From the sequence record PQ657772.1: a stretch of 64,000 nt of DNA; one strand, written 5' to 3'. Of the stretch, positions 12,854-13,411 are shown in pieces. Within the stretch, counting starts at the first letter, position 1; each line of letters begins with the position of its first letter. This stretch comes from Escherichia phage EC.P1. Under the pieces are notes generated by a model. It saw nothing but the letters and a program-made list of their open reading frames with translations. It did no database searches and was not told the origin of the DNA. The translations under genes were made by a program, and so were the position numbers.

Positions 12854-13411
12854 TTAATAGTTACAGTCAGCTTTCGCTGTGAATGTTTTACTTTCTCCGC
12901 GTTGTGTGGTGATTCGTCCGAGTAAAGTAGTTTTGTCAATAGTCATTGTAGTTAGTACTGGAACATTACCTTCAAAGTCAATAGCTTTGAAATTGTAGGT
13001 GGTTTCATTCTCCACTACACTTGGACCAAAGAGTTCATATGTGTTGATTTCAAGTGTGTCACCATCTGAACGCAACAGTGTGCAGTCCAGATTAGGAGTA
13101 GCCAGTACTGGGAAAGCCAAAAACATCATCATTACAATAATTAATTTCATTTCACTTCTCCTGTTTTTTTTCTTAGGATCAACCAATGACCAAATGAAGA
13201 ATCCGAGAATTACAAGTACCCACAGAATCATGATAAAGAAAGCGAACAGTACAATAGTGTTTGTCAAAAAGAAATACAATAGAATGTTCGACCCAATACT
13301 ACATACAATCAATGCAGCTTCATGTTTAACAACACGAATGGCTGTAATGAGTGCGGGAAGAAATCCGACAAATAACAGTACTAACGCATATAGTGATAAT
13401 GTTTCAGCCAT
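12854..13411 (-). CDS. membrane protein fused in frame to a secreted-type protein
   Basis: 185 aa ORF; internal AGGAGAAG RBS + ATG at 13150 starts a signal-peptide protein (MKLIIVMMMFLAFPVLA); A8 tract just upstream of it. Confidence 0.55.
   Translation of the reverse strand: MAETLSLYALVLLFVGFLPALITAIRVVKHEAALIVCSIGSNILLYFFLTNTIVLFAFFIMILWVLVILGFFIWSLVDPKKKNRRSEMKLIIVMMMFLAFPVLATPNLDCTLLRSDGDTLEINTYELFGPSVVENETTYNFKAIDFEGNVPVLTTMTIDKTTLLGRITTQRGESKTFTAKADCNY

Follow-up and report, generated by a model that had tools for sequence, protein, structure and literature searches.

An extra A in a homopolymer run very probably accounts for the joined reading frame of two overlapping Asteriusvirus genes in Escherichia phage EC.P1

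Adjacent genes whose stop and start codons overlap as ATGA, and which are translationally coupled, are common in phage gene clusters. The -1 frameshifting of dnaX and of IS elements is another familiar arrangement, in which an A AAA AAG heptamer is combined with an upstream Shine-Dalgarno (SD) sequence and a downstream hairpin. Phage T4 encodes the small membrane protein Imm and the periplasmic protein Sp, the latter of about 97 aa, with a signal peptide and helical. Changes in homopolymer runs have also been described, and in the 'authentic frameshifts' covered by Baranov et al. (2005, PMC1088944), some of them rescued by transcriptional slippage, a one-base change in an A run alters ORF structure with respect to orthologs; in the same paper, selection against runs is typically evident at a length of 9. 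For transcription, appreciable slippage by E. coli RNA polymerase has been stated to require 7 T or more, and a still longer stretch of A (PMC6260861).

The locus described here lies in a 64,000-nucleotide stretch of Escherichia phage EC.P1 (PQ657772.1), which is called the window throughout, and in which nearly all genes are on the minus strand (-). It consists of a 185-aa ORF (12854..13411, -; stop codon TAA at 12856..12854) that, by base-by-base reading and from the ORF list, carries a membrane-protein gene and a secreted-protein gene in one frame. A previous reading of the DNA, made from the sequence only, had described this ORF as a multi-TM N-terminal half followed by a signal-peptide protein, and our base reading and hydropathy scan (Kyte-Doolittle, 19-residue window) agree with it, placing hydrophobic segments at residues ~4-28, 31-50 and 52-77 and a fourth at 88-105. 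The membrane-protein part (13151..13411, -) contains the first three segments and is the ortholog of an 87-aa gene of related phages, with which it is identical over residues 1-82. These 82 residues end in DPKKK, whose Lys codons contribute to eight consecutive A in the coding sequence (13164..13171, -), and they are followed by CAGGAGAAGTGAA and then by the ATG at 13150..13148. The stretch KKKNRRSE thus lies between the third hydrophobic segment and the secreted-protein part, and the tail of the membrane part reads NRRSE onwards in the window, whereas in the relatives it reads TGEVK and stops. The secreted-protein gene (12854..13150, -) codes for 98 aa from this ATG, with a signal peptide encoded by 13150..13097, and the fourth hydrophobic segment of the long ORF corresponds to the h-region of MKLIIVMMMFLAFPVLA↓TP, in which positions -3 and -1 are V and A. 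An internal ATG at 13150 with its own ribosome-binding site had also been proposed, and an AGGAG SD is indeed present 7 nt before it (13158..13162, -), invariant in the alignment and read as codons AGG AGA in the fused frame.

Compared with ATGA-coupled pairs, the locus keeps all the relevant bases. In the relatives the 87-aa and 98-aa genes overlap by ATGA and the SD of the second gene lies inside the end of the first; the window differs in that a one-base displacement of the upstream frame to that of A8 leaves the TGA of the overlap unread, and the ribosome continues in the downstream frame. Rebuilding the ORF in silico with other run lengths gave upstream products of 85 aa for A6, 87 aa for A7, 185 aa for A8 and 86 aa for A9. 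Two of the three frames reach a TGA within a few codons, either the one at 13152..13154 (-), which terminates the upstream gene with A6 or A9, or the one at 13147..13149 (-), which belongs to the ATGA overlap and at which, from both the annotation of the relatives and the run-length simulation, the 87-aa gene normally stops with A7. A8 is the only run length that skips both TGA codons, and its frame coincides with that of the downstream gene. The earlier suggestion that two genes had been fused by loss of a stop was therefore right about the fusion but not about its cause, which is a change from A7 to A8 with both TGA codons intact. Likewise, eight A had been correctly seen on the coding strand, but the coordinates assigned to them, 13154..13161, are off by 10 and cover the ribosome-binding site.

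Eight jumbo E. coli phages, all Asteriusvirus members, match the region at 97.9-99.6% identity, and the window itself is from a jumbo coliphage of this genus; its first 25 kb are 99.0% identical to phage fEgEco12. Seven GenBank relatives (vB_Ec-M-J, Turkey3, Ecwhy_1, fEgEco12, WPEC3, WPEC5 and BF17) are annotated here with separate genes of 264 nt (87 aa) and 297 nt (98 aa) that share the 4-nt overlap ATGA. Comparison with orthologous loci, which had been recommended as a check, showed two separate ATGA-overlapping genes in 17 relatives (these seven, 7 further public assemblies and 3 metagenome contigs) and the fused frame in the window only. Among the 21 related sequences in which run length was counted, A7 occurs in 16 (6 GenBank phages, 7 further public assemblies and 3 metagenome contigs), A6T in BF17, A6 in CMSTMSU and A8 only in the window, a count drawn in part from an exact look-up that is biased toward unfused copies, as it finds only genes called as the 98-aa product; the unbiased DNA pattern scans together with the phage collection add only 11 independent sequences. 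The A6T of BF17 leaves the frame as it is with A7 and keeps the two genes, and the A6 of CMSTMSU makes the upstream gene end at the TGA one base before the ATG. The CMSTMSU record (MH494197) is flagged UNVERIFIED_ORG, leaves the 87-aa gene unannotated and shows 10 gaps in 2.3 kb against the window, and its run length is probably affected by sequencing errors. In the run alignment the window differs from its relatives by exactly one extra A. When 2.3-3.3 kb were compared with each close relative, this A was the sole gap, and it is one of four window-private differences in 3.3 kb, the other three being substitutions.

Searches beyond these relatives did not recover the fused form. An exact-sequence look-up of public assemblies gave no record of the 185-aa protein, a DNA pattern scan of IMG/VR for A8 alleles (A6 to A10 allowed) returned none, and the corresponding scan of metagenomes, with the same run lengths allowed, returned three contigs, all A7. 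A word-indexed protein search with the 185-aa ORF returned a single chimeric ENA protein of 191 aa, P0001, from an 8230-bp contig; its last 43 residues match the C-terminal end of the 98-aa protein exactly, the 148 before them are unrelated, and it is probably a chimeric metagenome assembly or a recombinant.

The 98-aa gene has the features expected of an independent gene. It is a separate gene in all relatives, starts at the same ATG behind the same AGGAG, 7 nt upstream, in every relative examined, and 25 blocks of public assemblies have its exact protein sequence as the product of a separate gene call. Read from the internal ATG, MKLIIVMMMFLAFPVLA followed by TPNLDC has the n/h/c layout of a Sec signal peptide, and judged by inspection the protein fits the criteria for such a peptide, namely a positively charged n-region (MK), a hydrophobic h-region of 10-15 residues (LIIVMMMFLAF) and small residues at -3 and -1 (PVLA↓TP). 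Its M1 is invariant, as are C23 and C96, and homologs at 44-47% identity (from the more distant phages JNE01 and EJP2, and a metagenome protein) keep M1, the hydrophobic N-terminus, the small residues at -3 and -1 and both Cys. In JNE01 and EJP2 the 98-aa-type gene is present without the membrane gene upstream and, since the homologous gene can stand in this way, gene arrangement indicates that the start of the 98-aa gene is autonomous. The view that the internal start very likely works alone is thus borne out, as far as comparative evidence goes, by the separate gene in the relatives and by these two phages. An exhaustive HMMER search for distant homologs recovered the family itself (P0002 and P0004) and weak matches, in multiple stretches, to very long repeat proteins, which were treated as uninformative.

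The upstream gene has a less regular distribution. Besides its absence from JNE01 and EJP2, the 87-aa gene is reduced to a 33-aa remnant in three metagenome contigs (L023, L024 and L025; OERM01000102, OEQX01000005 and OERK01000992), which also lack the 37-aa gene found before it in the window. The remnant results from a deletion between short direct repeats TCGGATT(T)CTTC (L025 990-1130), and all three contigs retain an undamaged 98-aa gene together with the A7 run and the ATGA overlap. From these comparisons the upstream membrane gene is dispensable in some lineages, and the pair is best described as a conserved autonomous unit, the secreted protein, preceded by an accessory membrane gene that tolerates changes at its 3' end.

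Our results make it very likely that a non-programmed single-base homopolymer indel, whether a mutation or a sequencing error, joins two normally separate genes in the window. The starting point would be two adjacent Asteriusvirus genes, one for an 87-aa inner-membrane protein with three hydrophobic segments and the other for a 98-aa protein with a Sec signal peptide; in the first of them, an A7 run located five codons from its end would become A8, and the frame would then pass both TGA codons and enter the downstream frame. This resembles the authentic frameshifts described in PMC1088944, in that a one-base change in an A run alters ORF structure with respect to orthologs, but the window run, at 8, is shorter than the 9 given there, and two ORFs are fused rather than one broken. 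No slippage rescue is needed in the window, since the downstream gene has its own start. The window is 65% A+T and has 19 A/T runs of at least 7, four of them of 8, with two other 8-base runs inside ORFs; the A8 run is therefore statistically ordinary and unusual only in its position.

Within this explanation, a real mutation is slightly favoured over a base-calling or assembly error. The second possibility, that the phage is truly A7 and the eighth A was introduced by homopolymer base calling or polishing, has a little less than an even chance of being correct. It is consistent with the uniqueness of A8 among the 21 related sequences and with the run being one of only four 8-base runs in the window, which is a classic site for base-calling errors. 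A second A7-to-A8 difference from fEgEco12, at intergenic 45119..45126, also speaks for it, and the CMSTMSU record, with its A6 and its gaps, shows that run-length noise exists in deposited genomes of the group. However, 17 of the 19 A/T runs of at least 7 agree with fEgEco12, including two other 8-base runs and 15 runs of 7, which is not what an assembly with frequent homopolymer errors would show, and elsewhere in the 64 kb no homopolymer indel disrupts a reading frame. The three private substitutions in the same 3.3 kb likewise argue against an error, as does the fact that the site is one of the few coding positions that would tolerate a frameshift. With respect to the intergenic site, the surrounding 500 bp are 93-97% identical among Asteriusviruses and vary in length, a divergence too great for a comparison with other phages to be informative, and the difference there is probably real variation.

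Also in favour of a real mutation, every other 1-nt indel with respect to fEgEco12 over the 64 kb, with the exception of one pair, either lies between genes or is offset a few bases away. The two 1-nt insertions of this pair, at 5880 and 5882 (net +2; CAATGCACCC against CAAT-C-CCC), lie about nine codons before the stop of the ORF at 5852..6151 (-), adjoining the start of the next gene, and are the only uncompensated coding indel in the 64 kb besides the A8 run.

If the A8 is real, its effect is expected to be small. The secreted protein would still be initiated from its own AGGAG and ATG, and the upstream protein would have its last five residues altered or would gain a fourth membrane helix. 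Hydropathy and charge, read by the positive-inside rule, suggest a topology in which the N-terminal MAE and the short TNT loop face outward and the RVVKHE loop and the DPKKKNRRSEMK linker face inward. With the linker KKKNRRSEMK in the cytoplasm, the h-region of the signal peptide would cross from inside to outside, its usual direction, and VLA↓TP would then reach the periplasmic side of the membrane, exposed to a signal peptidase that could liberate the same mature protein as usual. The fusion would probably be harmless, since the signal peptide still faces the right way.

It could be argued that the A8 is not only real but selected, with the secreted domain tethered as a four-helix membrane-anchored form. 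The compatible topology, the positively charged linker and a signal peptide that could act as the fourth span would suit such a form, and wherever a member of this clade has both genes, they lie next to each other and overlap. Nevertheless, the allele is a singleton, and the exact look-up has the 185-aa product on record nowhere else. In addition, the VLA↓TP site is kept, so that the tether would probably be cut, and the unchanged AGGAG and ATG suggest that no adaptation followed the fusion. An adaptive origin of this kind is therefore regarded as very improbable. It is similarly hard to credit that the run is a hypermutable contingency tract in which changes of run length, together with low-level slippage, let a phage population alternate between making the secreted protein free in the periplasm and making it as the tail of a membrane protein, though if this were true the tract would tune a superinfection-exclusion or envelope-modifying function.

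The idea with the slimmest chance of being correct is programmed recoding, in which a conserved slippery run, through -1 frameshifting or slippage by RNA polymerase, would yield separate and fused proteins in a set ratio. Some features have the form required: for the A7 relatives, the outcome of a -1 shift, or of transcription with one A too many, would be exactly this fusion; the window frame reads A AAA AAC, formally an X XXY YYZ motif, and then AGG AGA; and run length varies among isolates (A6, A7 and A8). With the dnaX and IS type the window also shares an A-rich stretch near the end of an ORF and another frame that continues. However, it differs from that type in having no canonical heptamer in the A7 frame, no hairpin, no upstream SD, no conservation of the run and no conserved shifted product. 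The A7 relatives read AAG AAA AAA ACA, which gives the non-canonical heptamer G AAA AAA. The BF17 run contains a T, and the two-gene frame is preserved there. For the 91 nt that span and follow the run, the fold has an MFE of -12 kcal/mol (z = 0.13), and 106 of 200 shuffled sequences fold as well. The only SD-like element is downstream of the run rather than upstream, and the upstream gene is absent from JNE01 and EJP2 and truncated in L023-L025. Among the relatives neither a conserved trans-frame product nor a conserved run was found (the run is A7, A6T, A6 or A8), and its 8 bases in the window and 7 in the relatives are below the slippage length of 9 that PMC1088944 treats as typical. The sequence-only reading had offered a slippery or terminating A run as one of two possibilities; a run whose length is not conserved, a fused frame present only in the window, the lack of a canonical heptamer and the lack of downstream structure do not favour it. 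Low-level incidental slippage at A8, regenerating the unfused upstream protein, may nonetheless occur.

The 185-, 98- and 87-aa sequences had no significant match in Pfam or PHROGs; Myelin_PLP and ABC2 came up as weak matches below the cut-off, which reflect hydrophobic composition. The 87-aa ortholog is labelled 'immunity to superinfection' in OQ718158, but the label was rejected, as the 87-aa sequence, with either the fused or the native tail, had no PF14373 match at E ≤ 1 and no match to phrog_1039. A single-sequence AlphaFold model of the 98-aa protein gives a six-stranded all-beta domain with moderate confidence (pLDDT 68), the predicted mature part being about 80 aa and all-beta, and a Foldseek search with this model found no match at E ≤ 0.001 in PDB or BFVD. 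The pair resembles T4 Imm and Sp in kind only: a small membrane protein and a signal-peptide protein of similar size are found here too, with an early-type promoter and in a region full of small membrane and secreted proteins, but the 87-aa protein lacks a PF14373 or PHROG 'immunity to superinfection' match and the 98-aa protein is predicted to be all-beta. A role of the pair at the host envelope or in exclusion would fit the neighbourhood and the early-type promoters, and is our guess.

The two genes belong to a small transcription unit that begins with a 37-aa hydrophobic-peptide gene (13420..13533, -; phrog_35037). Upstream of the unit there is a promoter-like TTGACT-18-TATAAT (13581..13610, -; 11 of 12 matches) whose -35 hexamer lies inside a GC-rich hairpin, and just after the 98-aa gene a hairpin GGTTGAC-TTCG-GTCAACC with TTGACT-16-TATAAT (12802..12831, -) forms the boundary between this unit and the following one. 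Hairpins of the form GG(Y)TTGAC-TTCR-GTCA(R)CC occur in seven minus-strand copies in the window (4847-4862, 5430-5445, 10735-10752, 12814-12831, 13595-13610, 17189-17204 and 25313-25328), where chance would give 0.07. Two of the sites were checked (13610..13581 and 12829..12802); in both, the 5' arm contains a TTGACT that is followed 16-18 nt on by TATAAT and can serve as a -35 hexamer. From their sequence the hairpins look like combined terminator and early-promoter cassettes; they flank variable gene modules in the window, and we take them to resemble the 'PeSL' promoter-early stem-loops of T4-type phages, which are sites of modular gene shuffling.

An HNH/NUMOD4 homing-endonuclease gene (180 aa; 12261-12803, -) is inserted between the 98-aa gene and the gene for a 497-aa virion protein. 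It is absent at this site from the eight GenBank relatives, whose match ends at 12811, and is present in one Logan contig (L018, ERR10686948), with an internally deleted copy of 118 aa in L025. Small envelope-directed genes are also found nearby, at 15200-15436 (-), 15507-15731 (-) and 10440-10691. Among the products encoded in the vicinity, a 78-aa membrane protein resembles Imm_superinfect (PF14373, E = 0.014) and phrog_1039 at a level below threshold, a 74-aa signal-peptide protein has a weak match to a Cor-like PHROG (E = 0.022), and an 83-aa protein has an fEgEco12 ortholog labelled 'lytic conversion lipoprotein'. Judged by such similarities and labels, the region looks like a cluster of host-envelope or exclusion genes.

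Examination of this locus shows how a one-base homopolymer difference at an ATGA junction can yield a convincing chimeric ORF. For annotation, it should be entered as two genes, or as a frameshifted upstream gene with the 98-aa gene intact behind it, rather than as a novel fusion protein of 185 aa. The event represents neither a new type of fusion protein nor a recoding site. If the eighth A is real, the locus would be a small curiosity rather than a new mechanism, and a natural example of how easily overlapping phage genes can be fused, probably without harm to the phage.
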